From an uncultured bacterium (GTDB taxonomy: Bacteria; CSSED10-310; CAZUFC01), in contig CAZUFC010000030.1 in the NCBI GenBank assembly GCA_964619725.1, positions 19,804 through 70,867 of the forward strand: a stretch of DNA of 51,064 bases, given 5' to 3'. The notes under the pieces were generated by a model. It worked only from the letters and a program-made list of their open reading frames with translations. It was not told where the DNA came from and made no database searches. Every line of letters begins with the position of its first letter. Within the stretch, counting starts at the first letter, position 1. The translations under genes were made by a program, and so were the position numbers. Below are positions 19,307 to 50,531 of the stretch, piece by piece.

Positions 19307-21198
<1,892 letters not shown>

Positions 21199-21316
21199 TT
21201 ACAATAAGCCACGGCAAAAATATTGACTAACAGATATTACAGTCAAATTAGAAATATTTCGAATTTTATTTTGAAATTTTTCGAAATATCGCACGATCTC
21301 TGGACTGAACAGAACA

Positions 21317-21506
21317 AACCGGGCTTATACCTCCTTCAGAACTCATGACAGTTTGTTTCAGTAATCGGGGTCGGGATCGGGATAGCTATCGGGATCGGGG
21401 TCGCTATCGGTATCGCTATCGCTATCGGGATCGAGATAGCTATCGGTATCGGTATCGGGGTCGCTATCGAGATCGGTTTCAAAGCAAAATGATGGGAGAG
21501 TTTTTA
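21317..21506 (+). repeat. Family B MITE-like element with the longest core: L arm, about 20 (NTCGGN) hexamers, then R arm.
   Basis: The L arm ends ..cagaactcatgacagtttgtttcagtaatc. The core reads ggggtcgggatcgggatagctatcgggatcggggtcgctatcggtatcgctatcgctatcgggatcgagatagctatcggtatcggtatcggggtcgctatcgagatcgg. The R arm starts tttcaaagcaaaatgatgggagag. Confidence 0.85.
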
Positions 21507-21735: not shown

Positions 21736-22617
21736 TTAAATACACATGACGAATTTAATTCTTTGAAGGTAAACTGATCGGGTTGCACACCGGATTGCAT
21801 TAATAAAGTACCTTACCGTGAATATTTTTCTGGCGTTGAGCAGAAACGTCCGATGTCCTGCATTGGGAAAGTCATCGTCCAACTTGAAATTTTCAAAAAA
21901 AGTTTTGTCGGGCAGGATATTCTCCAGTAATTTTCTCAATCCGGGTTTATCCCATTGACTATCTGCCGTATCGTAAATCTTCTTTCCTTTGATGTCGTCC
22001 GGGATTAACTGAAAAATCTTATAAAATGACCTGTTGGCGGAAAGTATATTCAAATCCTCATCCAGAATAATCAAGGGCTCCCGCACTGTATCCACTATGG
22101 ATTCAGCGTAATTCTTCGCCTGTTTTTCCCCTTCAACGGACTCCTGAAGCTCCTGCTTCTTTTCAATCTTTTCCGTAACTTCCAGGAAAGTGATCACTAC
22201 GCCGTCCATGATGTCTTCTGTCGTCAAATAGGGAGAGATTCTTATCTGATAATATTCTCCATTTATGGTTTCCACATCTTTCTTTATTGCCTGAAGCGAA
22301 TCTAGAACAAGGCGAATATCATCGTACATTTCCGGATATCTTAACTTGGTGGCGATGTGATCTACGGGACGCCCCATATCCTCTTCAATCAGTTGTATCA
22401 ATTTTTTGGCGGAATTGGAAAACTGTCTTATGCACATGTTTTTGTCCAGAATAAGAAATCCGAATTCAGGACAGTTCATGAGATTTTTAAGATCACTTTT
22501 AACGCTATCCACTTCTTCCAGCTTGTTTTCCAGTTCCGCATTAACCGTCATCAATTCCTCATTAACGCTGTGTAACTCCTCCTTCGACGTCTCAAGCTCT
22601 TCATTGGAACTCTGCAA
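21736..22617 (-). CDS. PAS-domain protein whose N-terminal coiled-coil carries an SNEELxxxxEEL signature, as found in CheR/CheB-PAS fusion linkers. It has no output domain.
   Basis: The N-terminus reads QSSNEELETSKEELHSVNEELMTVNAELENKLEEV and is followed by two PAS-like segments. The ORF-track start is a TTG directly after the stop of the receiver gene. The C-terminal roughly 30 aa look like read-through into the intergenic region. Confidence 0.55.
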   Translation of the reverse strand: MQSSNEELETSKEELHSVNEELMTVNAELENKLEEVDSVKSDLKNLMNCPEFGFLILDKNMCIRQFSNSAKKLIQLIEEDMGRPVDHIATKLRYPEMYDDIRLVLDSLQAIKKDVETINGEYYQIRISPYLTTEDIMDGVVITFLEVTEKIEKKQELQESVEGEKQAKNYAESIVDTVREPLIILDEDLNILSANRSFYKIFQLIPDDIKGKKIYDTADSQWDKPGLRKLLENILPDKTFFENFKLDDDFPNAGHRTFLLNARKIFTVRYFINAIRCATRSVYLQRIKFVMCI

Positions 22618-23044
22618 TTCCTTCAGGCCGGAGTATCTTATGAATGGTTTCCATCATTTGATCCATGTCAGGAGGTTTGCGAAAGACCGCTGCAGGGGCC
22701 GTTTTCCGCATGACTTCTTCAGGCAGTTTGGTGGAAATGGCGGTGAGATAAATTAAAGCTGTTTTGCTTTTTTCCTGGATGATGGAAGCGGCTTTCAAAC
22801 CGTCTAATTCTTCCGCCAGCAATATATCCATAATTATCAGGTCCGGCGTCTCTTTTTCGGCTAACTCTACCGCCTCCTCACCCGTCAAAGCCGTCATCAC
22901 CTCGTAGTCGCAATCCTCCAACATCATTTTCAGCCCGGCCGATATGATCGTTTCATCCTCAACGATCAGTATGCTTGGTTTGTTTCCTTTCGTCATATTA
23001 TTTCTCCGGGAATGTAATACAAAATTCGGTTCCCTTTTCTCCAA
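22601..23044 (-). CDS. Stand-alone CheY-like response regulator receiver domain.
   Basis: The 147-aa ORF contains ILIVEDE...DLIIMDILL...GL. It overlaps both flanking genes. Confidence 0.85.
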   Translation of the reverse strand: MEKREPNFVLHSRRNNMTKGNKPSILIVEDETIISAGLKMMLEDCDYEVMTALTGEEAVELAEKETPDLIIMDILLAEELDGLKAASIIQEKSKTALIYLTAISTKLPEEVMRKTAPAAVFRKPPDMDQMMETIHKILRPEGIAEFQ

Positions 23045-24128
23045 TTATTTTTATCGTTCCTCTCAGTTGCGAAACAAGCAATTGAACTATCTTAAGTCCC
23101 AACGATTCTGTTTTCTGAATGTCGAAATCCTCCGGCAAACCCTGGCCCCTGTCCTCTACGCGCAATTCGTAATTATCCCCTTTCTTCCCAAAATCCAGAA
23201 TCATAACATGGTCCTCTTCGTTTCCGTCATCCTTATACGCATGTTTCAGGACGTTCGTCGCCAGTTCATTTATGATCATCCCTGCAGGAATAGCCTTATC
23301 CATTTCCATACGAAAATCTTTCACGTTCAACCTGATATCGAGCTTGCGCCGGTGAGAATTTAAAAATACCGTCAGTAAAGCTTCCACATATTGTTTTATG
23401 TCGATGTCCGTCAGGTTTTCCGTCCGGTGAAGCAGTTCATGAACTAAAGCTATCGAACGTATGCGATCCTTACAGTTCCTAAACAGCTCCAGAACCTCCT
23501 CATCTTTTACTCCACGTGCATGCAACGTCAACAATCCGTTTATTATCGCCAGATTGTTGTTCACCCTGTGATGCAGCTCCTTCAACAGCAGATTCTTCTC
23601 CTCCAATTCCTGCTTCAACCTCTCTTCAGTCTCTGCCAGTTCAGTTATATCCGTCACCGCCGTCATGACTTGACGTCCGTTATCGTCTCCCCCGGTATTC
23701 AATACGCTTTCCAGGCGTAAAAAACGAGTCCTCTTGTCCCTGCCCCTCGTTTTTACGCGGATTATCTGTCTTTTCCCGGTTCTTAACGCTTTATGATGAT
23801 GCAACAGTATCGCCTTTTCAAATTCTTTATCGCAAAATACCGAAAAAGATTTGCCTGAAATATCGGATTTCAACATCCCAAGCATTCTCGCCGCCGTCTC
23901 GTTGATCTTCGTTATCGCGCCCCTCTCATCGCTCGTATAATAACCGATAGGCGCAGATTCATATAATTCCTCATACTCCGCCTTCGACTTCTCCAGCAAT
24001 GACTGAGCCTCACGTAAAGACTCATTCTGCATGTCCAGCTCAACCTGATGCACCTGCAACTCATGGATTACTTCTTCTAACGATTCCACGGTCTCGTCTG
24101 CAGGCATCTTTGATGACAGTTTTTCCAA
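22998..24128 (-). CDS. PAS-domain sensor histidine kinase of the HisKA_2 type.
   Basis: The 376-aa ORF has a PAS domain, an H-box ELHHRVNNNLAIINGLL (HisKA_2/HWE-like) and a HATPase_c domain (ELATNVLKHAY...DRGQGLPEDF). Confidence 0.85.
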   Translation of the reverse strand: MEKLSSKMPADETVESLEEVIHELQVHQVELDMQNESLREAQSLLEKSKAEYEELYESAPIGYYTSDERGAITKINETAARMLGMLKSDISGKSFSVFCDKEFEKAILLHHHKALRTGKRQIIRVKTRGRDKRTRFLRLESVLNTGGDDNGRQVMTAVTDITELAETEERLKQELEEKNLLLKELHHRVNNNLAIINGLLTLHARGVKDEEVLELFRNCKDRIRSIALVHELLHRTENLTDIDIKQYVEALLTVFLNSHRRKLDIRLNVKDFRMEMDKAIPAGMIINELATNVLKHAYKDDGNEEDHVMILDFGKKGDNYELRVEDRGQGLPEDFDIQKTESLGLKIVQLLVSQLRGTIKIIGEKGTEFCITFPEK

Positions 24129-24576
24129 TTTTCCCTCCGCATTGCGACGAAGTTCAAATTTTCTTTGTCTGATTCTAACTACTGCCTTTCATTGATCTAT
24201 ACAATATATGTTAAGCAAAATTCACAATAACAGATTTTCAAATGGCATCCCCGATTCACATCACTTTTAATCTACCACTAATTTGCATTTATGTCAATTC
24301 TTTTTTGCATTGGAATGGGTGCAACGTTGGGCGTCAATCGAAATGGCATTTGAATTGCCGACTCCCCGGAAATCTTTATGGAAGGATGGATGGAAAGGTG
24401 GGATGTCGTCATATAGAAGAAATTTTTTTCATTGTTTGATAGATTTTCCCGTTTTCGCAGGAAAACGCCGGCAGAACGCTTTTTTTCACAGGAAAGCATT
24501 GTTCGTCGTTTAAAGACAAGAATCATTCGAGCAATTTGCGGGCGATGATCAGAATAGAGAGCTTGCGATTGCAATT

Positions 24577-24595
24577 CCGGCAAGGATATTGCTAG
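24577..24595 (+). promoter_or_regulatory. Weak sigma-54-like -24/-12 element, cGGCAAg-N4-TTGCT.
   Basis: GG-N10-GC spacing is exact, with one mismatch in the -24 box. It lies about 115 nt upstream of the hemerythrin-like gene. Confidence 0.3.
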
Positions 24596-24709: not shown

Positions 24710-25249
24710 ATGGTAATGCCCATCGGACATTTGATGAAGGAACATCGAACGATCGAACGGATGATTGAGGTTATCCGGAAAAAGATAAATGATTATTATG
24801 AAAGTAAAAAGATTGATCCGGATTTTGTGGATGAAGCGGTCGATTTCATCAGGACCTATGCGGACCGCCTTCATCACGGCAAGGAAGAAGATATTCTGTT
24901 CAAGAAGCTGGAAGAAAAGGAGTTGTCGGATGAACATCAAAAAATCATGGATGAGCTGATGGAAGAGCATCGCTGGGGGAGGGAGACGGTGAAGAAACTG
25001 ACGGAAGCCAATCGGAGATACAGGCATGGCGATGAAGAGGCATCAGAGAGCATAGCGGAGAATCTGCATGAGTTGGCGAATTTTTATCCCGGTCATATCG
25101 AAAAGGAAGATAAACATTTTTTTATCCCTGTCATGGAATACCTTTCAGACGAAGAAAAAAGTAAAATGATAGATGATGAGGACGAATTCGACCGGCAGTT
25201 CATCCATGTTATTTATGAAGAGAAAATCAAGCATTCGAAAGCGGATTAG
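24710..25249 (+). CDS. Hemerythrin-like protein (HHE cation-binding domain).
   Basis: The 179-aa ORF is His/Glu-rich. It has H..E...H pairs (HLMKEHRTIERMIE; RLHHGKEEDILF; HRWGRE; HIEKEDKHFF) consistent with a diiron four-helix bundle. A gaggag SD is present. Confidence 0.7.
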   Translation: MVMPIGHLMKEHRTIERMIEVIRKKINDYYESKKIDPDFVDEAVDFIRTYADRLHHGKEEDILFKKLEEKELSDEHQKIMDELMEEHRWGRETVKKLTEANRRYRHGDEEASESIAENLHELANFYPGHIEKEDKHFFIPVMEYLSDEEKSKMIDDEDEFDRQFIHVIYEEKIKHSKAD

Positions 25250-25379
25250 CTGGCGCCTGTCCAGCGCTAAAATTTGAATCTGGTTTTGAGTTCATGGATA
25301 GGCGCCGGATAACGGCAGCGCAATCGCGCATTCAATACGAATATTCTGTACCGGGTTAACTGATAAGGAGGTTCAGCTA

Positions 25380-26306
25380 TTGAAAAGAATCGTGACCGTA
25401 ACCATGAATCCCAGTATTGATATAGGCTTGAAAGCCGCCAAGATACAGGCTGAGAAAAAACTGCGCTGCAGTAAGCCGAGATTCGCACCCGGAGGAGGCG
25501 GCATCAACATATCAAGGGTCGTGAAACGACTGGGCGGAGAATCCCTGGCAGTCCTCACGGAAGGCGGCGCTGCAGGGAAAATGCTTCATGATTTACTGGA
25601 AAAGGAATCATTGAACCTGCATCCGATTGAAATAAGCGAAATGACGAGGGAAAACTTCAATGTGGTCGAGGAATCGACCAATCAGCAATTTCGTTTCATC
25701 ATGCCGGGACCTGAGCTGAAGAAGGAGGAATGGGAGGAATGCCTTTCCACGTTAAAGAGTCTGGACCCGCCGCCCGATTACATAGCGGCGAGCGGCAGTC
25801 TTCCGCCGGGGGCGCCGGAGGATTTTTACGCCAAAGTGGCTGAATTGGCGGATACAAGGAACACTCATTTCATTCTGGATGCTTCCGGGAATGCGCTGAA
25901 GCGAGCGGCCGAGCACGGCGTGTTCATGTTATTGCCGAACATCAATGAATTGAAACAGATGCTGGATAAAGAGCCGGAAGATGAGAAAGCGCTGATTCGC
26001 GCTTCCAGGGATATCGTTGAAAAAGGGTGGGCCGAGGTCCTGGTAGTATCGCTGGGAGCCGGGGGAGCGATCCTGACCACAATGGACGGTTCGGAGCATC
26101 TAAGAGCCCCGACCGTTCCAATCAAAAGCCGAGTAGGAGCCGGCGACAGCATGGCAGCCGGCATAGTCACAAGCCTGGCCCAGGGAAATAACATAAGGGA
26201 ATCAGTCAGATACGGCATAGCCGCAGGTTCAGCGGCGGTAATGTCCCCAGGATCGGAACTCTGCCGCAAAGAAGACTTCGATCGTATTTATTCCGGCATG
26301 AAATAA
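25380..26306 (+). CDS. PfkB-family carbohydrate kinase (1-phosphofructokinase / tagatose-6-phosphate kinase-like).
   Basis: The 308-aa ORF starts VTVTMNPSIDI. It has the motif GGGGINISR and the C-terminal motif GAGDSMAAG. The start is a TTG with an aaggagg SD. Confidence 0.85.
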   Translation: MKRIVTVTMNPSIDIGLKAAKIQAEKKLRCSKPRFAPGGGGINISRVVKRLGGESLAVLTEGGAAGKMLHDLLEKESLNLHPIEISEMTRENFNVVEESTNQQFRFIMPGPELKKEEWEECLSTLKSLDPPPDYIAASGSLPPGAPEDFYAKVAELADTRNTHFILDASGNALKRAAEHGVFMLLPNINELKQMLDKEPEDEKALIRASRDIVEKGWAEVLVVSLGAGGAILTTMDGSEHLRAPTVPIKSRVGAGDSMAAGIVTSLAQGNNIRESVRYGIAAGSAAVMSPGSELCRKEDFDRIYSGMK

Positions 26307-26932
26307 GAAAGAGAGGAGAAAAATCCGCCTGTTGGAGGACAAAAACCAAGAATCTCACAAATCAAAAGAATAAGAGGGGCGATATTGCCGTAAACCCAAC
26401 ATCATTCAGCCATTAAAAACCCGACGAACACATTCAATATCGTCCGGCGGCAACTAAAGCAAAGGGCAGAACCAAACGTTCTCGGCATAGTCAAAACCAT
26501 TGAATCCGCCGCCAGACGTCAGGGCATTAAAAACCATCAAGGGAACGCGGCAGGATGCCGCTTTCAAAGGCGCCCGCAGAATCCGATCAGGTGTATATGG
26601 ACCGACAAAACTAATTGAATGATTACAACCCGAACTTTTAAGATAGTTCCCGAACATCGAAGAGAAAAAAGCGGATCAGGATGCAAAACTGGCTCATAAG
26701 ATTACAGCGGATAGCCCAGACAACAAGGATTGATGGAAAAAAAGATTGCGATATTAAACGCGTCAAGGCCTGCGGTAAAAGCTAATGTCGACGATGACGT
26801 TGACCGGACGAAAACCGCGAATCTCGTGAATCTCAGGAATAAGAGGGGAGATATTGCCGCGCATCCACATCGTTCATCTTTCCGGCATCAATAACATCCT
26901 CGAAAGCGTTCACCGATGAAGATTTTCACATT

Positions 26933-27075
26933 TGTCAAAAACACTTCTCTTAAGGTTGCAATTCGACAAAATATCCCATCATTTTGTTTTGATTTCGATC
27001 CCTATACCGGCCCCCGATTACTGAAACAAACCGTCATAAGTTTTTAAAGATGTGTAACCCGGTTTGACCAGTCCC
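26933..27075 (-). repeat. Family B MITE-like element, full copy in reverse orientation with a minimal core of about 3 units.
   Basis: The reverse complement reads aattagggactggtcaaaccgggttacacatctttaaaaacttatgacggtttgtttcagtaatcgggggccggtatagggatcgaaatcaaaacaaaatgatgggatattttgtcgaattgcaaccttaagagaagtg. Confidence 0.8.
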
Positions 27076-27326
27076 TAATTTTTACAGTCTTGATCGCTTT
27101 ACGGAGGCGGCAAATCTGATAAAGCCAAAAATCATGGGGCGGCAGGCGATTAGAAAAACGACCTCACATACGCTAATACAGAAGCGTGATAAAAGCGTTG
27201 TACACCATCAAGCGTATATTCCGTCGAATTTTGCGAGTAAAAGGCTTTTTTGTCCATCGCCCTTTGTAAATAATTTACTTTTCCATGGCGTCGTTGAATT
27301 CTTCAATGAAAAACTTGCATGCAGGA

Positions 27327-27701
27327 CTATGATGCCCGTACTCTCTGTTTGATCCTGTTGTTTATTTCTTTTTTCAAGTCGTCTAAATCTTCTGTTTTGC
27401 GGACGAAAGCATCAGCGCACCAGGTTCTGAAATTGCAACTGAAATCGTTACAATTCGAGTGCAGAATAATGGGCGTATCGCGTTTACTGCCGGCAATCTG
27501 CTGAATGGCCTGCAGACCTGATTCGAGCGATTTTGAGATGTCGAAAACTACCACGTCGGGCGCATGAATATCCACCAGGTCTGGAGCAATGTCATAATTT
27601 CCCGTCATTATAAGGCGGTGGCCGTTTGTTTTAAGATTTTTTTCGTATATCCTCCGATATACGTCATCTTTATCCGCCACAAGGATTTTTGCCATAACCA
27701 T
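27327..27701 (-). CDS. Stand-alone response regulator receiver domain.
   Basis: The receiver fold is KILVADKDDVYRRIY...VVVFDISK. I place the start at an ATG with an aggagg SD at 27701. The ORF track begins at 27716. Confidence 0.7.
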   Translation of the reverse strand: MVMAKILVADKDDVYRRIYEKNLKTNGHRLIMTGNYDIAPDLVDIHAPDVVVFDISKSLESGLQAIQQIAGSKRDTPIILHSNCNDFSCNFRTWCADAFVRKTEDLDDLKKEINNRIKQRVRAS

Positions 27702-27857
27702 GTACTCCTCCTGCAACGATCGATATGCGTCTCGACCGCCGATCGAAAAATATTCTCCTTACTTCACCGAGATATTTTTATAGCCCATACGTTCCTTCCG
27801 GAAAATTTTCCCGGATTAAAACCGGAACCTGCAAGGAAAGATTAAGCAATTCTCGTG

Positions 27858-27891
27858 CCCATTAATTTTCGCGTACGCGAAAATTAATGGG
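27858..27891. promoter_or_regulatory. Perfect 34-bp palindrome, 16-bp arms and a 2-bp centre. It is a candidate operator.
   Basis: cccattaattttcgcg ta cgcgaaaattaatggg. The 2-nt centre is too short for an RNA hairpin loop, so a dimeric DNA-binding protein site is more likely. It shares the TTTCGCG/CGCGAAA motif with the 197-330 inverted repeat. Confidence 0.5.
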
Positions 27892-34890: not shown

Positions 34891-35000
34891 CTGTTCTTCA
34901 CGATCAATCCGTTGATTAAACCGGCATAGCTGATGTGACTAAATTTAAAATCTTATTCACCTGACGCACAAGGCGGCAGGGGCCGTGTTTGTTATTGTGG

Positions 35001-35202
35001 GCCTGATCAAACACGGATTACACTTCTTTCAAAATTTTCGACAGTTTGTTTCAGCAATAGGTATCGGGATCGGATTCGGTTTCGGCGGCCGTATCGGTAT
35101 CGGGTCGGATTCGGTTTCGGCGTCGGGATCGGCATCGCAATCCGAATAGCAATCGAAACAAAATGATGGAATATTCTGCCGAATTTTAACCTCAAAAGAC
35201 AC
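35001..35202 (+). repeat. Family B MITE-like element, full copy with a core of about 16 units.
   Basis: The L arm is gcctgatcaaacacggattacacttctttcaaaattttcgacagtttgtttcagcaatag. The core is gtatcgggatcggattcggtttcggcggccgtatcggtatcgggtcggattcggtttcggcgtcgggatcggcatcgcaatccgaatagcaatcg. The R arm is aaacaaaatgatggaatattctgccgaattttaacctcaaaagac. Confidence 0.85.
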
Positions 35203-35206
35203 TTTT

Positions 35207-35224
35207 CAGGCACAATTATTGCTT
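35207..35224 (+). promoter_or_regulatory. Sigma-54 -24/-12 promoter, aGGCACa-N4-TTGCT.
   Basis: GG 35209-10 and GC 35221-22 have the exact N10 spacing. It is a near-consensus match to TGGCACG-N4-TTGCW. The predicted TSS at about 35233 lies upstream of the Hsp20 gene. Confidence 0.55.
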
Positions 35225-35358
35225 CCTAATTCGGTGAGAGTTATTGATTTTTTGATCATAAAAATTCTGCGGGCATAATGAACTTCTGCGATACACAAAG
35301 TAAAAAAATTATCAACATATTGGAAAACAGAAGGCGTTATGTTTATGGAGAAACAAAA

Positions 35359-35838
35359 ATGGAAATAAGCGCCAATGAATTCAGAAGAAATACAAACAAT
35401 GGAAGAGCGAACCGTTTTCCGAAATTTGAAAAACCGGAAAACGGAGCTTCAAAACCTGAGCCCCGAAACAGTTGGCTGCCGCTGACCGACATTATGGAAG
35501 CGGACACCAAGGTTATTGTTTTAGTCGAACTGCCGGGAATGGAATCGGATCAGGTCGAACTGGAAATCGAAAATAATTTTTTAACGATTCGTGGGGAGAA
35601 ACCCAACGATCTGTTTGAAACGGATCATTATCTTCATAATTGTGAGAGGTACAGCGGAATATTTCAAAGGATTTTTTTGCTTCCCCACAATCTGGTTGTA
35701 AAAAATGCTCACGCCTGGTTTAAAAACGGTTTACTGACCGTCGAGATTCCAAAGTGGGGCGGAGATACGCCGTATTTCAGCAACGTAAGAAGAGCCGGGC
35801 AAATGGAACATCCGAAACACACAATTCGAATCGAATGA
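35359..35838 (+). CDS. Hsp20 / alpha-crystallin family small heat-shock protein, second copy.
   Basis: The alpha-crystallin domain is WLPLTDIMEADTKVIVLVELPGMESDQVELEIENNFLTIRGEK...GLLTVEIPK. I chose the ATG with a ggag SD, giving 159 aa. The ORF-track start at 35278 has no SD. Confidence 0.8.
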   Translation: MEISANEFRRNTNNGRANRFPKFEKPENGASKPEPRNSWLPLTDIMEADTKVIVLVELPGMESDQVELEIENNFLTIRGEKPNDLFETDHYLHNCERYSGIFQRIFLLPHNLVVKNAHAWFKNGLLTVEIPKWGGDTPYFSNVRRAGQMEHPKHTIRIE

Positions 35839-35865: not shown

Positions 35866-35902
35866 GAACGGATTGGAACCATTTCCAATCCGGTTCTTTT
35901 AT
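35866..35902 (+). terminator. Intrinsic terminator after Hsp20-2.
   Basis: aagaacggattggaacc atttc caatccggttctt forms a stem of about 13 bp, followed by ttttatg. Confidence 0.6.
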
Positions 35903-36235
35903 GCATTGGTTAATCCGGGAACTGATGAAAAATGATGAATTCAAACAAAATATTTTGATTTCCGATCATTTTTTCATCGGCGATCAGGAGGAGAAAGAAG
36001 GAACTTTTTTTGAATTTAAATAGGAAAACAGACATGGTATGGCATCGTCACACTTCATGCTCCGACAATGACTGCGTATCCGATGCTGTGTTCGATAAAG
36101 CCGGAGGTTGAAATTCCCGGAAAATGTAATATGCTGTATTTTTTCCCTGCGCCGGTTCCTGATAAGGCGAACGGCTTCCGGTTGCTCGAAGTATTCAGAA
36201 TTCTGTAAACGGGAACTCAACGGAAAGGATGAATC

Positions 36236-36517
36236 ATGAAGATAAAACACGTGGAAGGAAAAGACCGGGGCAAAATAATGTTGTATGCCATCAGCACATG
36301 CGTCTGGTGTAAAAAAACCAAAAGGTTGCTGGACGAACTGGGTGCAGCATACGATTATATAGATGTGGACACCCTGTCGCAGGAAGAAAAAGAACAAACA
36401 AAAAAGGAGATGCAGGCTTGGAATCCGCGACTGTCTTACCCCACTCTTATCATCAATAGTGAAGCCGTAGTGGGGTACAAGGAAGACAAAATAAGGAAAT
36501 TGCTCGAAAAAGATTAA
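36236..36517 (+). CDS. Glutaredoxin-like / NrdH-like small thiol-disulfide protein.
   Basis: The 93-aa ORF has a CVWC active-site motif near the N-terminus (MLYAISTCVWCKKTK) and a thioredoxin-fold pattern (..YPTLIIN..). An aaaggatg SD is present. Confidence 0.8.
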   Translation: MKIKHVEGKDRGKIMLYAISTCVWCKKTKRLLDELGAAYDYIDVDTLSQEEKEQTKKEMQAWNPRLSYPTLIINSEAVVGYKEDKIRKLLEKD

Positions 36518-36541
36518 CAGGAGTCTGTTAAGGAGAAAAAT

Positions 36542-37063
36542 ATGGCTGAAAACAACGACATTCCTCAGAAGCAAATCGATGATCTTTATGAAAAGCTGGA
36601 CAGAGAAGCGGAGGAGTCCGGATATCACCTGAATCCGGATGAAGAATTCACCAAAGAACTCGTCAAGGGATTGATCACAAACGAGAAAAGGTACGGATAC
36701 CCGGCATGCCCCTGCCGCCTGGCCGAAGGCGATAAAATAGAAGACCTGGACATCATCTGTCCCTGCGATTACAGAGATGCGGACCTGAATGACTACGACG
36801 CGTGCTATTGCGCTCTTTATGTGACGCAGGAGGTTGTAGAAGGCAAAAAAGAAGCCGCTTCCATACCTGAAAGACGCCCGCCCAGAGAGGAAAGAAGTCA
36901 GATCAAAAGGCAGAAACCGGCCCAAAGCGCGTCTGAACTGCCCTACACTGTCTGGCGATGCAAGGTTTGCGGTTACCTCTGCGCAAGAGAACAACCGCCC
37001 CAGGTCTGCCCCGTATGCTTCGCCAAAAAAGACAGGTTTGAAGTCTTTATCAGAAGCAAGTAA
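36542..37063 (+). CDS. Ferredoxin:thioredoxin reductase catalytic-subunit-like domain fused to a C-terminal rubredoxin domain (FTR-Rd fusion).
   Basis: The FTRC cysteine pattern is [24 protein letters not shown]...DACYCALY, i.e. CPC-x16-CPC-x..-CxC. The C-terminus reads WRCKVCGY...CPVCF, a rubredoxin CxxCG...CPxC pattern. A ggagaaaaat SD is present. Confidence 0.8.
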
Positions 37064-37180
37064 TGCGACTGAGCAAATGGGTATACATTTTGTCCCGGCA
37101 ATAAATCGGCCTATTGAAATAGCGTTGCCAAAGCCGGCTGTTATGCACATTTGACACGCGACCCCGGATTTCGGGAAGAA

Positions 37181-37290
37181 TCAGACCGGGTTTATACTAC
37201 TTTCAAGACTTTTGACGGTTTGTTTCAGTAATCGGGGCCGGTATCGGAATCGGGGGTGAAATCGGTAACGAAATCGAAACAAAATTCATT
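37181..37290 (+). repeat. Family B MITE-like element with a short core of about 6 units and a degenerate R arm.
   Basis: tcagaccgggtttatactactttcaagacttttgacggtttgtttcagtaatcggggccggtatcggaatcgggggtgaaatcggtaacgaaatcgaaacaaaattcatt. Confidence 0.8.
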
Positions 37291-37383: not shown

Positions 37384-37604
37384 TAACGTGAATAAAAACT
37401 CATTAAAATTTTAACCCCTCACGGAAGGTAAAGAAAAAAACTTCACCAAACCTATCAGGGGGATTTGAAAGGGTGCGCTGAACTGAAAGATTCATTCTGC
37501 TAAAGCAGGCTGGAAGCCTGCGCTCCCAGTAACCCCTCGTAATTGGGAATTCAGTTAGCGTGAATAAAAACTCATAAAAATTGAAACCCCTCACGGAAGG
37601 TAAA
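37384..37604. repeat. Two direct copies of a roughly 50-bp unit, 171 bp apart, in an 800-bp non-coding region.
   Basis: 37384-37433 is gtaacgtgaataaaaactcattaaaattttaacccctcacggaaggtaaag. 37555-37604 is gttagcgtgaataaaaactcataaaaattgaaacccctcacggaaggtaaaa. Confidence 0.7.
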
Positions 37605-38113
37605 AAATACAGCTCAATACAGCGTTCTGCCTAATAGCCGTCCATAAGCCTGAATCGTAAGTTTGATGCTTATGGACCTTTTTTCCGCTAATAAGTTTTT
37701 GTCCATAAACGGTGAATTTCCCCAAATGCTGCGTCAGGCTGCGGATTTGCTCAGTCAATGTATAAACAATACCCCTGCCTCGCAAATCCTTGCCTTCCTT
37801 GTCTTAAGAAAAATTCGCCCGTTTATGGATCAAAAACCCAAGTGGCTGTCCAGCATTAAATTTTGAATCGAGATTCGAGTTTGTGGACAGACACTAATAA
37901 GGTTATTATCCGGATATTTCAAAAGAAACAATGCCGTTTCAATCAGGTATGCTGAAAATATGCACACCATTTATCGTGAACCCTCACAGTTCTATTTTGG
38001 CTGAAAAGTTGCATAACGAAAATCAGGATGAATCGGGGAAATTTCTTCTGTTACAGCAGTCTTGAACAACAGCCGGAAATATCCCGCAAAGTTTAATCAA
38101 AAGGAGCAACAGT

Positions 38114-39478
38114 ATGAAAAATTATGATTATATTATAGTCGGCAACGGTTCGGGCGGGGCTCTGGCGGATGCGGCCGTTTCTCATAATCTGAAAATCGCG
38201 GTTATCGATAAAAAGCCCATCGGCGGGACATGCGAAAATTTCGGTTGCATTCCGTCCAAGATGCTGATGCTGCCGGCTCATCGTATAATGGAAATAAAAG
38301 AAGCCGCCAGATTGGGCATCAAAACGGAAATAACCGATACGAACTTCAGCGAAGTTATGGAAAGAATGCGGATACACCGGAAAGCGACCCAGGACCGCCG
38401 GTATGATGCTGTAAGAAATTCCCCTCCGATGGATTTTTATTTCGGCGAAGCGGAATTTACGGACGAATATACGTTAAGCATAAACGGCAAAACGCTCCGC
38501 GGCGAAAAAATAGTGATAGCGGCCGGAGCCCGTCCTTCACATCCGCCGATTGAGGGAATCGACAGCCACCCTACTTTGAATAATGAAACCGTCCTTGAAT
38601 TGAAACGTCTTCCACGCAGCATGATCATCATCGGCGGCGGATACATTGCAGCGGAATACGGACATTTTTTTTCAGCCTTCGGCAGTGAAGTAACGATCAT
38701 TGAACAGGGAAATCGATTATTGTCGAATGAAGAGCCGGAAATTTCAGAAGCGTTGGAGAAGGCTCTTGGAGATAGACTGAATATAGTTTTGAACGTTAAA
38801 GCTGAAAAAATGGAAGGCAATGATTACGGGCTCAGAATATCGGGACGGGATGAAAAAGGCGACTTGATGAAAATTGAAGCGGAAGAGCTGCTCATTGCGA
38901 CAGGTCGGATTTCTAATGCTGATGTATTAAAAGTTGGAAACACAGGCGTCGCCGTGGACGATCGCGGTTTCATCAGAGTGAACGAAAGGCTCGAAACAGG
39001 AAAAGAGGGCATCTGGGCGCTCGGAGACATTATCGGCAAGCAGATGTTCAAACATGTCGCCAATCGCGAGGCCGGCGTAGTCTTTGAAAACAGCATTCAC
39101 GGCGAAAAAATGGAGATGGACTACGATTCCATTCCTCATGCCGTCTTTACATATCCTGAAATAGCTTCACTCGGATACACGGAAAATCAGGCGCGAAAGA
39201 AACACGACATATGGGTCGGAAGAGCCGGTTATTCTGATACCGCCTGGGGACTGGCCATGCGGGAAGAAGAAGGATTCGTAAAAATAATTGTGGACCGGGA
39301 AAGCAGAAATGTCATCGGGGCCCACATTTTCGGACCCAACGCTTCAATGATAATCCAGGAGTTGATCAATGCCGCATCCGGCAAACATGACATAAGCGCT
39401 CTGGCAAATCCCATGCACATCCATCCGGCATTGCCTGAAGTGATAACTTCTGCGTTGTATAACCTGGAGGAAGTATAG
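38114..39478 (+). CDS. Class I pyridine-nucleotide disulfide oxidoreductase (dihydrolipoamide dehydrogenase / glutathione-reductase / mercuric-reductase-like flavoprotein).
   Basis: The FAD motif is IIVGNGSGGA and the redox-active CxxxxC is GGTCENFGCIPSK. The NAD(P) motif is IIGGGYIAAE. A C-terminal dimerisation domain with HIHPALPE is present. An aaaggag SD is present. Confidence 0.85.
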   Translation: MKNYDYIIVGNGSGGALADAAVSHNLKIAVIDKKPIGGTCENFGCIPSKMLMLPAHRIMEIKEAARLGIKTEITDTNFSEVMERMRIHRKATQDRRYDAVRNSPPMDFYFGEAEFTDEYTLSINGKTLRGEKIVIAAGARPSHPPIEGIDSHPTLNNETVLELKRLPRSMIIIGGGYIAAEYGHFFSAFGSEVTIIEQGNRLLSNEEPEISEALEKALGDRLNIVLNVKAEKMEGNDYGLRISGRDEKGDLMKIEAEELLIATGRISNADVLKVGNTGVAVDDRGFIRVNERLETGKEGIWALGDIIGKQMFKHVANREAGVVFENSIHGEKMEMDYDSIPHAVFTYPEIASLGYTENQARKKHDIWVGRAGYSDTAWGLAMREEEGFVKIIVDRESRNVIGAHIFGPNASMIIQELINAASGKHDISALANPMHIHPALPEVITSALYNLEEV

Positions 39479-39529: not shown

Positions 39530-41404
39530 TCAAAACCTGTATCCTATCGAAACCTCGACGATATCGGCCGTATAATCATTGAAATGGTGCAACTCTTCTT
39601 CATAATCTTCGTATCTGTATTCGGTTCTTATGAGCGCGCCTCCAAACATGGTCCATTCAATCCTGCCGCTTAACCGCATTTGACTGACAGGCCATGATTC
39701 ATCATTATCCATTACGACGAAATTTCCGCTTATGCTTCGACCTTCCTGGAATTCATACTCGACCATTCCATCAAGGATATGATTATCGGCTTCGTATTGA
39801 ACCGGCCATTGGAAAGCTCCTCCGGATGTGATGATTTCCTGGTCTATTTCGCGTTTGATGTTCCTGTATGAGTAACCCAGGTTCATAGTGAGACCGCTTT
39901 GATGATAAACGGCCCTGGCATTAAGATGATCGGAATCGGATTCCCAATCAGAATCATCGTTCACGGTTCTTTTGATCAGAGCAGTCGCAGTTATGGAAAA
40001 AAGTGAATTTATCCTGGTTTTAGCCTTAAGATAGAACCGGTGATATTCACCCGGAGCTGCCGTAACGTAAGGATCGTCCGCCTGTCCGTATTGATAATCT
40101 CCGGTTAATTTGAACTTTTGGATGGAGCTCCATTTGACGTGAGAAAACAAACCCAGGCGTTCGGTAACCGGCGGTTCCGATTCATATTCATATATCCCAT
40201 GACTGATATCCCGCGACTGGTACCTCGTTCCTAAACTCAGGAACAACCCAGGCGCCGGCGAATATTGTAATCCGGCTTCGCCTCTGTCTATATCATAATC
40301 CCAGTCCGTTTCAGTATCGCTTCCATCCATGTTCAACCATCCTTCCTGCGAAAGATCGCGCCGGTCGAACAGTCCTCCTAACGCCCATCGATCGCTTAAC
40401 CGGTATGATAATTCAACCTCGTAAGCCGTAATATCCCGCTCAACTTCTCCCTCTCCGCTGAAGAAAAAATCCGAATATGATCCCGAATAGCCGATTCCTT
40501 CCCCCTCCTCAGAATAATCATATTCCATATCCAGGTCTTCCCGGCTTACAATCGCATTAATGGTTAATCTTTTCACAGGATTCACAATTACCCGGAAAAT
40601 GTGATTGTAACTCATGAAGTCATACGGCATATTGAGAGCAAAATCGAACAACTCCGTAGCCCCACCTTCGTTTTCATCATCCTGTCCTGGAGAAGGTCCC
40701 GGAAGAAACGCCGAGAAATTGTTTTCATAATCCCTGATCCTTTCCTCCAAAACGAAACTGACTCGCTTAAACTTAATGTTCACTCCTGCTGAGTATTCAT
40801 ATTTCGTTTCATCGATCGGTTTATCGAGAATGAACAGGTCTCTTCCGTAGGAATAGGTGATTTCACTTATTCCTTCTTTGACGTATCTGGAAAAATTCAT
40901 GAATAGATCGAACCTGCTGCCCAACCGCACCTTCAGTGCAGCATCGTCGTATTCCCTGTCGAAATTGAAGGTGTGAAGGTCCCCTTCATTATTAATATGG
41001 TAATCGCTCAGTTCCTCCGGCCAAAGTATATCGTCATAGCTGTAAGCAGCCTTTCTTCTTTTATATCTGAACTGATAGCTTCCATATTTTCTTATGGTAA
41101 CTCCTGCCCTGTAAAAGGGATCGCCGCCTAAATCAGAAAGGCTTATTTCCATCTTGTCCGCAAGTTTTTTGAGCGACCCGGCCGGTTTGCAACGTAAATA
41201 AGCTTCCATCAGCCGAAATCCATCCTGCAGGTTGACGTGCTGATCATATTTTGATTCTGCGCCTCCGACATCGACGAACCGGTAACCAGCGACCAGCAAC
41301 CCTGAAAAACGGCTTTGCTCTTCCGACTGCGCCTTAAGGTAATTAAACGGCCCGGCTGCCGCCAGGAGCAATCCAAAAATAACAAATAATTTGTATGTTT
41401 TCAT
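39530..41404 (-). CDS. Outer-membrane beta-barrel protein, MtrB/MtoB/PioB-like in size. It is the presumed porin partner of the adjacent decaheme cytochrome.
   Basis: The roughly 624-aa mature-sized protein has a signal peptide (MKTYKLFVIFGLLLAAAGPFNYLKAQ). Amphipathic beta-strand character alternates along its length and it ends in an aromatic residue (...SIGYRF). I chose the internal Met start at 41404 so it does not overlap the cytochrome gene. It lies 24 nt downstream of the decaheme gene. Confidence 0.65.
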   Translation of the reverse strand: MKTYKLFVIFGLLLAAAGPFNYLKAQSEEQSRFSGLLVAGYRFVDVGGAESKYDQHVNLQDGFRLMEAYLRCKPAGSLKKLADKMEISLSDLGGDPFYRAGVTIRKYGSYQFRYKRRKAAYSYDDILWPEELSDYHINNEGDLHTFNFDREYDDAALKVRLGSRFDLFMNFSRYVKEGISEITYSYGRDLFILDKPIDETKYEYSAGVNIKFKRVSFVLEERIRDYENNFSAFLPGPSPGQDDENEGGATELFDFALNMPYDFMSYNHIFRVIVNPVKRLTINAIVSREDLDMEYDYSEEGEGIGYSGSYSDFFFSGEGEVERDITAYEVELSYRLSDRWALGGLFDRRDLSQEGWLNMDGSDTETDWDYDIDRGEAGLQYSPAPGLFLSLGTRYQSRDISHGIYEYESEPPVTERLGLFSHVKWSSIQKFKLTGDYQYGQADDPYVTAAPGEYHRFYLKAKTRINSLFSITATALIKRTVNDDSDWESDSDHLNARAVYHQSGLTMNLGYSYRNIKREIDQEIITSGGAFQWPVQYEADNHILDGMVEYEFQEGRSISGNFVVMDNDESWPVSQMRLSGRIEWTMFGGALIRTEYRYEDYEEELHHFNDYTADIVEVSIGYRF

Positions 41405-41427
41405 TATTATCCTCCCCGGAATGCCCT

Positions 41428-42312
41428 TTATTTGCCGAAATAAGACGACAGATTGGAACCGTGTATTGCAGCATGGCAATCAGTGCAATTCGATTGCCTG
41501 GTAAATCTCTGATGCCAGACCGGGACTTCAGCATGGCAACTATAGCACAAGTCCGCAACGCTCTGAAACAGCAGCAAATGCCGGTTTACGGAACCGTGAG
41601 GATCATGACAGCCGGTACACCCTTCTATTAAAACGCCTCCATGTTCATACAGGTAAGGCCCTCGTTTGAAAGCATGACACTTGTAGCATATCTGCGGATC
41701 GTAACCGCTCAGGTTCCTCCTCCTTGACGGTCCGTGCACCTCATGACATGATGTGCATACCATGAAACCTTCCTTCAACGGATGATGCTCATTCAAATTA
41801 AATCGCGCATATATCGAAGGATGACACTCTCGACACGATTCAACTGTGCTTTCCTTGAGCAGATAACCGGCGACCTCGTTTTCGGAATGGATGCTGTGAC
41901 ATCTCATGCAATCCGTACCGGTGAATCCATGAACGGAACTGAAAAACCTCGATGTTTTTTTCTTATGACATTGAACGCATGCAGCGGTTTTTGAAATAGG
42001 CGTTTCCTTCTCGCTGAACGTCGTCATTCCTGCTGTATTCGTATAATCCTCCACATGCGCTTTATATCCCTTATGACATGCCGCACAACTGAATTCGACA
42101 GATTCTCCGCCGTGGGCCTTTTTACGATCCAGAGAAACATGAGGGTTATCTTTGATCGAAGATACGACTTCATCATGACAACCCGCGCATAATCGGACAT
42201 CGGAGCTTTCCTGCGCTGCCGACGGAAAGTAAACGATATGCAACACGATCACGGTGAATATAAATGCCTGCACGACTGTGACATAATGTGTGCGGCGCAT
42301 GAGGAAATTCAT
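41428..42312 (-). CDS. Periplasmic decaheme c-type cytochrome, MtrA/MtoA/PioA/DmsE-like.
   Basis: The 294-aa ORF has a signal peptide and exactly ten CxxCH motifs: CAGCH, CAACH, CVQCH, CMRCH, CRECH, CTSCH, CYKCH, CTGCH, CYSCH and CTDCH. Confidence 0.85.
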   Translation of the reverse strand: MNFLMRRTHYVTVVQAFIFTVIVLHIVYFPSAAQESSDVRLCAGCHDEVVSSIKDNPHVSLDRKKAHGGESVEFSCAACHKGYKAHVEDYTNTAGMTTFSEKETPISKTAACVQCHKKKTSRFFSSVHGFTGTDCMRCHSIHSENEVAGYLLKESTVESCRECHPSIYARFNLNEHHPLKEGFMVCTSCHEVHGPSRRRNLSGYDPQICYKCHAFKRGPYLYEHGGVLIEGCTGCHDPHGSVNRHLLLFQSVADLCYSCHAEVPVWHQRFTRQSNCTDCHAAIHGSNLSSYFGK

Positions 42313-42354
42313 TTCAGCCCTCCCTTGATTTGATGTTGAATCTGCTTATTCTTT

Positions 42355-43155
42355 TCAAGAGTGAGAAAAAACGATGACCGCGTCAGGATCGATCACCTGA
42401 AAAGTAAAAGATTCCGTGAAATACAACCATACTTCCTTGCTGGAATGCTGTTCGTATCCCATTGAGAAATCATGTCCGAGAGTCAGACGAAAACTGCCTT
42501 CCCGTTGAGATGCCAGAAACATATCGTCGATATGAGGAGAAAATATTACCTCGCCTCCTATCAAGTCCTTTATCTGACGGTGCAGCGGATATCCTTTCAC
42601 AGTAGCCATCATCCTGCTCCACATATCGGGAGACATTACAAGCGAACAGGGTCCCGGTATGCCGGCTTTCCTGAATTTGATCATCCCCTCGGAAAGTTTT
42701 TCCATTAATGACTCAGCTCCGTCCGGATAAGGAATCACCTCATGCCCCGTTCCCTTCGCCAATCCCTCTATGCCGCCTGTATGAAAACCTTTATATACAG
42801 CCTTTTCCTCGAATGCGGCTATCTTGCGCGCAGCCTCCTCCATAGGTTCAATATCCGCATCCTCAGCCCCTCTGCTTATGTTGTCCAATTCCCATACATT
42901 CAGCTTAAAAGAAATACGGGTTTCCATCAGCGGTTTTACCTGGTGAAGACCGTACAGGACCTCCCGCTTGGGCTCCGATTCCAAAACCTGCAGACGGCCT
43001 GTCGATACTACTCCGAAATCCCATCCGTGAGGTCCATCTATCTCCACGAACTTTCTCGCCGTCAACGAGGTCCTGAATATTTCTCCCGCTCGTCCCCGTA
43101 ATTCCTCCCAGGCCCTATCGGATATGGGCGCTAACGATTGTCTCAATATGTCCAT
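42355..43155 (-). CDS. Family 1 encapsulin (linocin M18-like) nanocompartment shell protein.
   Basis: The 266-aa ORF is colinear with Thermotoga maritima encapsulin. MDILRQSLAPISDRAWEELRGRAGEIFRTSLTARKFVEIDGPHGWDF aligns with [47 protein letters not shown], and the match continues through the C-terminus (..TESFTFQVIDPDAVIV). Confidence 0.9.
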   Translation of the reverse strand: MDILRQSLAPISDRAWEELRGRAGEIFRTSLTARKFVEIDGPHGWDFGVVSTGRLQVLESEPKREVLYGLHQVKPLMETRISFKLNVWELDNISRGAEDADIEPMEEAARKIAAFEEKAVYKGFHTGGIEGLAKGTGHEVIPYPDGAESLMEKLSEGMIKFRKAGIPGPCSLVMSPDMWSRMMATVKGYPLHRQIKDLIGGEVIFSPHIDDMFLASQREGSFRLTLGHDFSMGYEQHSSKEVWLYFTESFTFQVIDPDAVIVFSHS

Positions 43156-43175
43156 TGGTTTCCTCCTTCTGTTTT

Positions 43176-43535
43176 CTAAGGTTTGCCTATCTTAAGGTCA
43201 GGGTTGTCGCTATCCTCTGATTCCGGTTCTTCATTTTCTTCCTGCATCTCCTCCAGCTCCGTTATGTCTCCTTCCTTAAACAGGTAAGTCCGCATCTCCT
43301 CATCCCAGCCCGGCATATTCCTTCTCAACCATTCCAGAATCATGCACGCATGCTCGATCTCCTCATCCCTGTTATGAGACAGAATTTTCTTCATCGCCTC
43401 ATCCGAAGCCGCATCAACCCTCTGGTTGTACCAATCCACAGCCTCGATTTCTTCTTTCAGACTGTGCAATGCACGTGTACAATCTCTGGTTAAATCCCTT
43501 AATTCATCAGTCGGTTCATGATATTCCGCCATTTT
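43176..43535 (-). CDS. Encapsulated ferritin-like cargo protein (EncFtn) with a C-terminal targeting peptide.
   Basis: The protein is about 119 aa. ExxH ferroxidase-type motifs are present (EEIEAVDWY; DEEIEHACM). An acidic linker is followed by a C-terminal ...DLKIGKP, which resembles the T. maritima cargo peptide GGDLGIRK. I start it at an ATG with an aaggag SD. The ORF track starts at 43613. It lies 20 nt upstream of the encapsulin gene. Confidence 0.75.
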   Translation of the reverse strand, partial: KMAEYHEPTDELRDLTRDCTRALHSLKEEIEAVDWYNQRVDAASDEAMKKILSHNRDEEIEHACMILEWLRRNMPGWDEEMRTYLFKEGDITELEEMQEENEEPESEDSDNPDLKIGKP

Positions 43536-43621: not shown

Positions 43622-43790
43622 CCAGGATTTCTCATATAACCTGTTACGAACGGCCATATCCCCGCACCTTTAAGCCCTGCTCACTTCGGACCTGATCAAC
43701 ATAACGCCCCCATGCTTCCGCAGTCCTCCGGTCCGCCACGCTAGAATCTGCGGGAATCTGAACGCTCTCACTACAATTTTATATGAAAAA
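43622..43790. repeat. Repeat family C copy 2.
   Basis: It contains atgcttccgcagtcctccggtccgccacgctagaatctgcgggaatc and the shared flanking blocks. It aligns with 4478-4625. Confidence 0.7.
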
Positions 43791-44099
43791 TCCGGGCTAA
43801 CGCACTGCTGCTGATAAAAACTTTGTATTTCATCCCGAAATCCTTTTGAATAAAAATTGAATTAGAAATTTTACAATTTTTTTTAGCAATTATTCTAATT
43901 TCCGACCGGCAACATAATCGTTCAGCCTGAACAAAAACTGAGGAACATTCGCAGGTCCACGGCTTAAATCCTTTTATGCAGCGCTTTCCAGGATGAGTTT
44001 GACTTCTTCAAGTGAGTCCCCTAGATTTAGAAAGGACTTAATGATGAGTTCCAGGGGAATGAATTCCATGCGCAAGAACCGGTTCTTAAGTCAGTATCT

Positions 44100-47960: not shown

Positions 47961-48061
47961 ATTTTCACGAACCACAGCGCTCCTTTAAATGACTCCTCTG
48001 CACCGGCGCCCGCGTCCGATTGATAACTCTACCGCAAAAATAAATCTGCATAAGGGAATCC

Positions 48062-48312
48062 GGGGACTGTTCAAACACAGATTACATTTTTCTTAAAAAA
48101 ATCAGCGCAAAGGAATCCCCTGTTTTTTCATCGAGGCCCGTTTGTTTCGGGGTCGGGGTCGGGATCGAAATCCGGCGCTGATCAAAAATGGCCATGTCAG
48201 GGTTACAATTTGTCAGTTTGAATCCTTCGTGCTCGTGCTCGTGCTCAGTGCAGCGGTAATCGTAATCGAAACAAAATGATGTGATATTCTTTAGAATTGC
48301 AAAATCAAAAGA
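48062..48312 (+). repeat. Family B MITE-like element, a composite/nested copy with internal insertions and a CGTGCT-type core variant.
   Basis: The L arm is ggggactgttcaaacacagattacatttttcttaaaaaaatc. An insert follows, then ggggtcggggtcgggatcg, then a second internal L-like piece cagggttacaatttgtcagtttg, then cgtgctcgtgctcgtgct ... ggtaatcgtaatcg and the R arm aaacaaaatgatgtgatattctttagaattgcaaaatcaaaag. Confidence 0.7.
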
Positions 48313-48369
48313 AGCATTTTTGATCATTGTCGACTTTTGATCATCGCCGGTGCAATTTACGATAATATC

Positions 48370-49572: not shown

Positions 49573-49911
49573 ATTTTTTGCCTCCTTGCCGTGGCGTTTA
49601 CCGCTTCCGGAAAAAAACTCCTGTTCATGCGATTTCTTTCTTCGCCCGGTTCATGTTAATTGTTCCATAAAAAGCGTTTCCTGTTTTCTTTAATCCGTTT
49701 TTCCCCAGAAAAAATAATCGCGAGTCTCCGATAATGAAGAATCCGGGCCCTATACTCAGGAGCAAAAAATATACCAGAAGGCACGGTTTTTGCTGTTATA
49801 AAATCGAAGGATTTTTATATTCGGAATTCAATGGAAGTCGTTCCATATCATAATTGTCCGGATGTCGATCGGTAAGCGACACTATAACTTCAACATTTCA
49901 GGAGGTTAAAG

Positions 49912-50419: not shown

Positions 50420-50531
50420 ACGGCATTCATCAATATCACAGCACATGTACGCAAACTCGAACCCCGATTTAAATTTTTAGCGCTGGACAGGAGCTGCGGT
50501 TTTTGATCCGAAAATTAAGCTTTATTTTGAT

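Follow-up and report, generated by a model that had tools for sequence, protein, structure and literature searches.

Pfam and NCBIfam scans of a 51,064-nucleotide stretch of DNA from an uncultured bacterium (GTDB lineage CSSED10-310; assembly GCA_964619725.1, contig CAZUFC010000030.1; hereafter the window, whose own coordinates are used throughout) identified two Hsp20 small heat shock protein (sHsp) genes, two BON-domain genes and a LonC-type protease gene, together with a four-gene operon headed by EncFtn and a complete N-ATPase operon (AtpR, AtpQ, Na+/H+ exchanger) with PolX and LigA downstream of it. The scans also identified a pyruvate dehydrogenase operon as well as sensor kinases and receiver-only regulators. 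Given the number and placement of -24/-12 motifs of the sigma-54 (RpoN) type upstream of genes in this window, we consider it probable that it holds a dense set of genuine sigma-54-type promoters. The strong sites are six and precede the EncFtn operon, Hsp20-2, a response regulator gene, a GSDH/PVC-type dehydrogenase gene, a decayed P460-like gene and a hemerythrin gene; the weaker sites are three or four and precede the BON1-Hsp20-1 pair, the N-ATPase operon, LonC and possibly a flavoprotein disulfide reductase gene. The sites and the genes behind them are as follows.

35208-35223, plus strand: sigma-54 motif AGGCACAATTATTGCT, 14.4 bits, 135 nt before Hsp20-2; predicted transcription start site (TSS) ~35234
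35359-35838, plus strand: Hsp20-2, ATG 35359; the 159-aa start agrees with NCBI protein P0001
43586-43601, minus strand: sigma-54 motif AGGCACGGCGTTTGCT, 16.5 bits, the best of the window, 53 nt before EncFtn
49779-49794, plus strand: sigma-54 motif AGGCACGGTTTTTGCT, 16.1 bits, 117 nt before the cytochrome-P460-like gene
49761-49776, minus strand: sigma-54 motif TGGTATATTTTTTGCT, 13.6 bits, 188 nt before the GSDH/PVC-type dehydrogenase-like gene (48370-49572)
27845-27860, minus strand: sigma-54 motif GGGCACGAGAATTGCT, 15.5 bits, 128 nt before the receiver-only response regulator gene (27327-27716)
24578-24593, plus strand: sigma-54 motif CGGCAAGGATATTGCT, 13.2 bits, 116 nt before the hemerythrin gene
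24344-24359, plus strand: second, weaker co-oriented site TGGCATTTGAATTGCC, 12.6 bits, 351 nt before the hemerythrin gene
24710-25249, then 25380-26306: hemerythrin gene, then PfkB
4652-4667, plus strand: weaker site TGGCATAATACTCGCA, 12.9 bits, 78 nt before BON1 (TTG 4746-5402)
5486-5929: Hsp20-1, downstream of BON1 across an 83-nt gap
3931-3946, minus strand: weaker site CGGTACATTTATTGCT, 11.8 bits, 45 nt before the LonC-like protease gene (1447-3885, ATG 3885)
21131-21146, minus strand: site CGGCATGTTTTTTGCC, 12.7 bits, ~59 nt before atpD, the first gene of the N-ATPase operon (13237-21072)
37998-38013, plus strand: marginal site TGGCTGAAAAGTTGCA, 10.8 bits, 100 nt before a dihydrolipoyl-dehydrogenase-like flavoprotein gene (38114-39478)

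The sigma-54 sites span 11.8-16.5 bits, with start codons 45-190 nt downstream. A preliminary description of this DNA had quoted five of them, and all five sequences were indeed present at the coordinates and on the strands given there, each intergenic and co-oriented with the gene it was assigned to (135, 53, 45, 116 and 78 nt before the start codons of Hsp20-2, EncFtn, LonC, hemerythrin and BON1, respectively). Only the Hsp20-2 and EncFtn sites among these carry the full GGCAC-N5-TTGC; the LonC, hemerythrin and BON1 sites have one mismatch or are weaker and draw their support mostly from placement. Four sites were absent from that description, and three of these are among the five strongest. 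Two gene starts bear on the assignments. The start of atpD was corrected to ATG 21072, which has GGAGG ahead of it, and CGGCATGTTTTTTGCC therefore lies upstream of the N-ATPase operon rather than within a gene. TTG 4746 is a plausible start for BON1, with GGAG about 10 nt upstream and a predicted TSS near 4678. The EncFtn site has the same sequence in Logan contig L001, and SRR7048225 holds an identical 2.3-kb piece of the window.

To score the sites we used a weight matrix of 16 positions, which is our own approximation of the published TGGCACG-N4-TTGCW and is not curated. Whether the motif is more frequent than expected by chance depended on the pattern. The rule of the preliminary description, GG-N10-GC spacing with a TTGCT box was barely above chance: GG-N8-TTGCT gave 11 matches against 6.0 expected, and since five of 100 shuffles equaled the observed count, this pattern is weak on its own. 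The fuller consensus and the matrix, in contrast, were far above chance. GGYAY-N5-TTGCW matched six times against 0.5 expected, a count reached in none of 100 shuffles, and eight positions scored at least 13 bits against 1.26 expected. The exact GGCAC-N5-TTGC occurred four times in the window. The five top-scoring sites were all intergenic and co-oriented with a gene 54-189 nt downstream, in a window that is 19% intergenic.

A second test considered the strand-specific region before each plausible transcription-unit start (n = 20). A score of at least 11.5 bits was found in nine of the 20 upstream regions against 0.21 expected (maximum of two in 500 shuffles), and one of at least 12.5 bits in eight against 0.11. 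The best score per region was bimodal: nine genes had 11.8 bits or more, two had 10.8 and 9.3, and the rest had 7.5 or less. The 9.3-bit match (7062-7077), upstream of the LVIVD gene, falls among the hexamer repeats of a repeat element described below and was taken as chance. Matches to the sigma-70 consensus stayed at the shuffled level (29 vs. 27.6, 26 vs. 26.3 and 14 vs. 16.5). The sites are thus enriched well above chance and correctly placed, and their assignment to the sigma-54 -24/-12 class is supported.

With one mismatch allowed, enrichment of GGCAC-N5-TTGC was mild, at 15 matches against nine expected. This figure, together with the modest excess of GG-N8-TTGCT, raises an alternative in which only the full-consensus sites (those of EncFtn, Hsp20-2, the response regulator and the P460-like gene, perhaps also that of GSDH) are real, while the weaker ones (LonC, hemerythrin, BON1, atpD and the flavoprotein) are chance matches and their genes use other promoters. 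It fits, too, that LonC homologues found in species-representative genomes (identity of 52% or less) lack the motif upstream, and that the regions upstream of atpD in two distant homologous loci (L053 and L046) lack it as well. Placement speaks differently: six of the 11 one-mismatch sites are intergenic, and five of those six face a gene. As the upstream-region counts also exceed expectation so clearly at both thresholds, we regard a restriction to the full-consensus sites as unlikely.

A further explanation is that the matches reflect chance, base composition or repeat copies and are not promoters at all. The window is indeed rich in repeated intergenic sequence. One family resembles a miniature inverted-repeat transposable element (MITE), is ~170-220 nt long and is present in at least nine copies:

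66-132, minus strand: MITE-like copy
4300-4479, minus strand: MITE-like copy
7031-7144, plus strand: MITE-like copy
21309-21503, plus strand: MITE-like copy
26928-27077, minus strand: MITE-like copy
34999-35200, plus strand: MITE-like copy
37167-37279, plus strand: MITE-like copy
48057-48330, plus strand: MITE-like copy
50527-50702, plus strand: MITE-like copy

The left and right arms of the element are conserved (GGGGACTGATCAAACC..GTTACACTTCTTTCAAAACTTTTGACAGTTTGTTTCAGTAATCGGGG and ATCGAAACAAAATGATGGGA..GAATTGTAACCTCAAAAGA..TTTTTGATCAATGCC, respectively) and flank a variable core of (TCGGKA)n hexamer repeats. Two copies folded no better than shuffled sequence (z-scores of -0.55 and +1.08). 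The Hsp20-2 site begins 8 nt after the end of one copy, but a sigma-54 motif is missing from the corresponding position of the other copies. Moreover, the flanks of the sigma-54 sites are mutually unrelated. It follows from both observations that the motif is not repeat-borne, and a repeat artifact was ruled out as the source of the sites. No shuffle matched the GGYAY-N5-TTGCW count or the upstream-region scores either, and an origin by chance, composition or repeats is extremely unlikely, the least credible of the readings we weighed.

Two other kinds of repeat occur in non-coding sequence. Copies of one (..GTCGATATTGTCCCTCTTATTCGTGTGATTCG(C/G)GTGATTCGTG..) lie at 1-76, 487-562 and 50742-50817 and, inverted, at 26344-26403 and 26813-26854, in non-coding stretches that include a 1-kb gene-free region (26307-27326). 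The other consists of 59-nt direct repeats (37384-37442 and 37556-37614; 86% identical, 172 nt apart) in a 963-nt gene-free region between a gene for a 388-aa hypothetical protein and the flavoprotein gene. The 388-aa open reading frame (ORF; 35984-37150, minus strand) had no Pfam or NCBIfam match.

If the motifs function as their form suggests, RNA polymerase carrying sigma-54 would bind the GG at -24 and the TTGCT at -12 and form a stable closed complex. Transcription would start about 12 nt downstream of the GC, and solely after ATP-dependent remodelling of this complex by a bacterial enhancer-binding protein (bEBP) of the AAA+ class. Besides the start near 35234 for Hsp20-2, this predicts starts near 43575 for EncFtn, 49751 for GSDH and 27834 for the response regulator, all three on the minus strand, and near 49805 for the P460-like gene. 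Such promoters would give tight off/on control, in which genes for stress survival, iron storage and redox, and ion extrusion would be silent until a signal arrives. The activator or activators would be encoded outside the window and would be either several or one that works without a DNA enhancer. Consistent with this, and as the preliminary description had reported, we found no bEBP in the window: none of the 39 ORFs contains a Sigma54_activat domain, and no GAFTGA-like loop or GESGTGK Walker-A motif was present in the six reading frames.

The same description had gone further and placed all of its sites in one sigma-54 regulon for proteostasis and iron/oxygen handling under a single bEBP. 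Upstream activator sequences of sigma-54 promoters typically lie ~80-150 nt upstream, often with a site for integration host factor (IHF). Upstream regions of 230 nt were compared for nine or ten sites; they had no dyad with arms of 5-6 nt in common, and an IHF consensus was found upstream of none of the sites. Long k-mers common to the upstream regions came solely from copies of repeat elements; when these copies were masked, the best shared 12-mer scored 48, and shuffled controls reached 45-47. The evidence therefore does not support one regulon whose single activator acts through a shared site. Since no common upstream activator sequence was found, there are probably several activators, or one that acts without a DNA enhancer.

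Individual promoters differ in their surroundings. The response regulator promoter has a palindrome of its own, a perfect 34-nt sequence (CCCATTAATTTTCGCGT followed by ACGCGAAAATTAATGGG; 27858-27891) that occurs nowhere else in the window. It overlaps the -24 GG, is not placed as a terminator of any gene and is, in our view, a candidate operator or activator site. The divergent sites at 49761 and 49779 stand back to back, their 16-nt motifs separated by 2 nt. Polymerase footprints at the two sites would therefore be expected to overlap (by ~15 bp), and neither promoter has intergenic space for an enhancer of its own. This overlap suggests mutually exclusive occupancy or a shared activator.

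Another repeat is found at two of the promoters. It is a direct repeat of 81 nt (4534-4614 and 43712-43792; 83% identical) that extends to about 110 nt (~4502-4615 and 43682-43795), with one copy upstream of the BON1 site and one upstream of the EncFtn site, in opposite orientation relative to the two sites. It also lies upstream of the MASE3 histidine kinase gene. The repeat may serve as a regulatory module common to these promoters or may simply be a further repeat family.

The genes downstream of the sites include the four-gene operon behind the EncFtn site. Its members, spanning 39530-43532 on the minus strand, are:

43176-43532, minus strand: EncFtn
42355-43155, minus strand: encapsulin
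41428-42312, minus strand: DmsE/GSU2203-like decahaem cytochrome
39530-~41425, minus strand: GSU2204-like outer-membrane beta-barrel protein

The intergenic gaps are 20, 42 and ~2 nt. The operon ties an iron-storage nanocompartment to a porin-cytochrome-type module. The cytochrome-P460-like gene (49912-50419, plus strand) is interrupted by an in-frame TAG at 50011-50013, just past the signal peptide, and its reading frame shifts near 50265-50275. Unless these are assembly errors, the gene is probably a pseudogene; it still lies behind one of the strongest sigma-54 motifs. Hsp20-2 is followed by a terminator-like bidirectional hairpin (35869-35892). An RNA thermometer in its leader of ~125 nt is not supported: the fold had a z-score of -0.87 and the ribosome-binding site was unpaired in the minimum-energy structure, and as the leader has no significant structure, no thermometer layer is indicated. 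A scan against Rfam gave no match at gathering thresholds. Divergent from the hemerythrin gene is a cluster (21736-24128, minus strand) of a HisKA_2/HWE-type histidine kinase, a receiver-only regulator and a PAS-only protein, an architecture reminiscent of general-stress signalling modules. No sigma-54 motif was found upstream of this cluster (best score, 6.5 bits).

We compared the window with distant homologous loci. Several of the window's genes belong to an island that recurs in distant metagenome-assembled genomes (L042, L044, L046, L048, L049, L052 and L053) and comprises PRC-barrel, BON, PfkB, DUF72, N-ATPase, PolX and LigA genes. Some of these loci add Hsp20-LonC, trehalose synthases, pyruvate phosphate dikinase and a fusion of hibernation-factor and cold-shock domains (S30AE-CSD), and in L044 and L046 an RpoD-like sigma-70 gene adjoins the island. 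Its counterparts in the window are:

592-21072: counterpart of the island, first part
24710-26306: counterpart of the island, second part

In the Aminicenantes-like genomes (L044 and L046, and also L042, L048 and L049), the homologues of PRC, the N-ATPase subunits, DUF72, PolX and LigA are 49-74% identical to those of the window. The best named matches of LigA and AtpD came from Aminicenantes, Thermodesulfobacteriota, Chloroflexota, Jettenia and archaea. This conserved stress-survival island was probably spread by horizontal transfer, which makes LigA and AtpD of little use as taxonomic markers here.

Among these loci, only L046 (GCA_012974985.1) and L044 (GCA_046538375.1, named Aminicenantes) carry sigma-54-like sites, whereas L042, L048 and L049 have none. 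There are four such sites, in an intergenic fraction of 5-8%, at 1153-1168, 1648-1663 and 4730-4745 of L046 and 4696-4711 of L044. The genes immediately downstream are those for a small zinc-ribbon protein (CGGCATGTTTCTTGCT), the PRC and BON homologues (TGGCATGTATCTTGTA and TGGCATGTATTTTGTA, respectively) and a KTI12-like kinase (TGGCATGTTTTTTGTA), and the four sites share a recurrent motif, (T/C)GGCATGT(A/T)T(C/T)TTG(T/C)(A/T), with a conserved spacer. These sites offer partial, independent support for linking sigma-54-type promoters to this set of genes. The support is qualified because three of the four have GT at -12. The genes concerned also differ in part: the island in L044 and L046 has sites before PRC and BON, while in the window PRC has no site, but Hsp20, EncFtn and the N-ATPase do.

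The unusual form of the L044 and L046 sites is relevant to whether sigma-54 reads the motif at all, or whether another sigma factor or a DNA-binding regulator does. The pattern TGGCATGTAT(C/T)TTGTA in these related loci, with GT at -12 and a conserved spacer, is atypical for sigma-54 and would suit a different reader. Within the window itself, however, the GG-N10-GC spacing, the GGCAC box and the TTGCT box all match the sigma-54 consensus, and we know of no other factor that uses an asymmetric bipartite -24/-12 motif. We therefore consider a reader other than sigma-54 very unlikely.

Loci from a low-GC organism (L040 and L041; JGI Ga0102943_1014713 and Ga0102941_1003020) have BON, EncFtn (69% identical), encapsulin and PfkB genes adjacent to one another and no sigma-54 motif. 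The association of BON, encapsulin and PfkB thus recurs whatever the promoter type. Encapsulin homologues from JGI metagenomes (two loci, 44% identity) lacked the motif, as did the regions before EncFtn homologues, and the next-best homologue of Hsp20-2 was 46% identical.

We can now return to the proposal of one regulon under one bEBP. A stress theme is common to the downstream genes, and the homologues of BON, PRC, PfkB, DUF72, the N-ATPase, PolX, LigA and LonC-Hsp20 co-travel as an island elsewhere. The repeat of ~81-110 nt upstream of the BON1 and EncFtn sites could be read in its favor, and the GSDH and P460 promoters, which leave no room for separate enhancers, would suit an activator that needs none. 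Set against these points are the failure to find a common dyad, k-mer, above-control 12-mer or IHF site, and the palindrome that belongs to the response regulator promoter alone. The 81-nt repeat, moreover, is present at two promoters only and in opposite orientation relative to them. The theme itself was drawn too narrowly in the preliminary description: the proteostasis and iron/oxygen genes that it named do carry sites, but sites that are as good or better precede the response regulator, GSDH, P460-like and N-ATPase genes, and a dehydrogenase, a response regulator and a pseudogene are unrelated targets for such a regulon. One regulon under a single bEBP is conceivable but, in our judgment, improbable.

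A bolder version of this idea also deserves mention. Sigma-54 and one global, enhancer-independent activator might act as the master switch of a conserved dormancy and stress-survival set, possibly in an Aminicenantes-related lineage, and might govern a large share of its transcription units rather than a few percent. The set would consist of the small heat shock proteins, BON/OsmY-like proteins, LonC, the N-ATPase, hemerythrin and the encapsulated-ferritin/porin-cytochrome operon, with sigma-54 in the role that RpoS, SigB or EcfG has elsewhere. We offer both the global activator and this master-switch role, taken jointly, as speculation that is doubtful at present.

Several observations weigh against taking the sites as genuine sigma-54-type promoters. 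The collections searched contained no close relative, and loci L002-L043 and L048-L053 are mostly without the motif. Where related sites do occur, in L046 and L044, the dinucleotide at -12 is in three of four cases GT and not the near-invariant GC. All bit scores rest on a self-made approximation of the published consensus. Judged by the one-mismatch counts, the LonC, hemerythrin, BON1, atpD and flavoprotein sites are individually within chance range. Finally, a sigma-70-like sequence that matches at 9 of 12 positions (TTGATC-16-CATAAT; 35252-35279) lies between the Hsp20-2 site and its gene, and it may represent an additional promoter. The enrichment, placement and orientation of the sites lead us to favor genuine sigma-54-type promoters despite these points.

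If this is correct, the functions controlled by sigma-54 would gain an encapsulated-ferritin operon with a decahaem cytochrome and an outer-membrane barrel, as well as a Na+-type N-ATPase operon. The EncFtn-encapsulin-cytochrome operon and the N-ATPase operon are accordingly put forward as new candidate targets. The lineage would be one in which about half of the transcription units in 51 kb depend on enhancer-dependent transcription, and the sites would provide a testable route to the signals that induce encapsulin iron storage and stress-survival genes in uncultured bacteria. The gain lies in regulon content and density and not in a new principle, because the promoter type and its mechanism are textbook knowledge.

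Compared with canonical sigma-54 promoters (TGGCAC-N5-TTGCW, activated by AAA+ bEBPs), the sites of the window share the GG and GC exactly 10 nt apart and the GGCAC and TTGCT boxes. They differ in that the base before the GG is A, G or C instead of T in most of the strong sites, that no upstream activator sequence, IHF site or bEBP gene was found in the window, and that their density is unusually high, with nine of ~20 upstream regions in 51 kb carrying one. In our literature searches, we found no report that paired sigma-54 or rpoN with encapsulin.

The closest precedent in gene content comes from predicted regulons of other phyla. Carrera-Reyna et al. (2025; PMC12316311) give TTGCT as the consensus -12 box and report that small heat shock proteins (COG0071) and Lon-type proteases are enriched behind predicted sigma-54 promoters in Planctomycetota/Bacteroidota, and CheY-like receivers behind such promoters in Planctomycetia. 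In the portions of their paper that we consulted, we found no mention of encapsulin, hemerythrin or N-ATPase. The same gene classes (sHsp, Lon and receiver) carry the motif in the window; in contrast, GroEL and DnaK are not in the window, whose best named homologues are from Aminicenantes and Thermodesulfobacteriota.

A single-gene parallel is provided by ibpB of E. coli, which has a sigma-54 promoter confirmed by chromatin immunoprecipitation (TGGTAAATGGTTTGCT, -185 to -168; PMC2831329). The E. coli gene belongs to the ibpAB operon and has a sigma-32 promoter as well, whereas Hsp20-2 is monocistronic with a terminator after it. The GSDH site TGGTATATTTTTTGCT is similar to the ibpB site, and both ibpB and Hsp20-2 are sHsp genes behind a far-upstream sigma-54-type site, which for Hsp20-2 is predicted and lies at -135.

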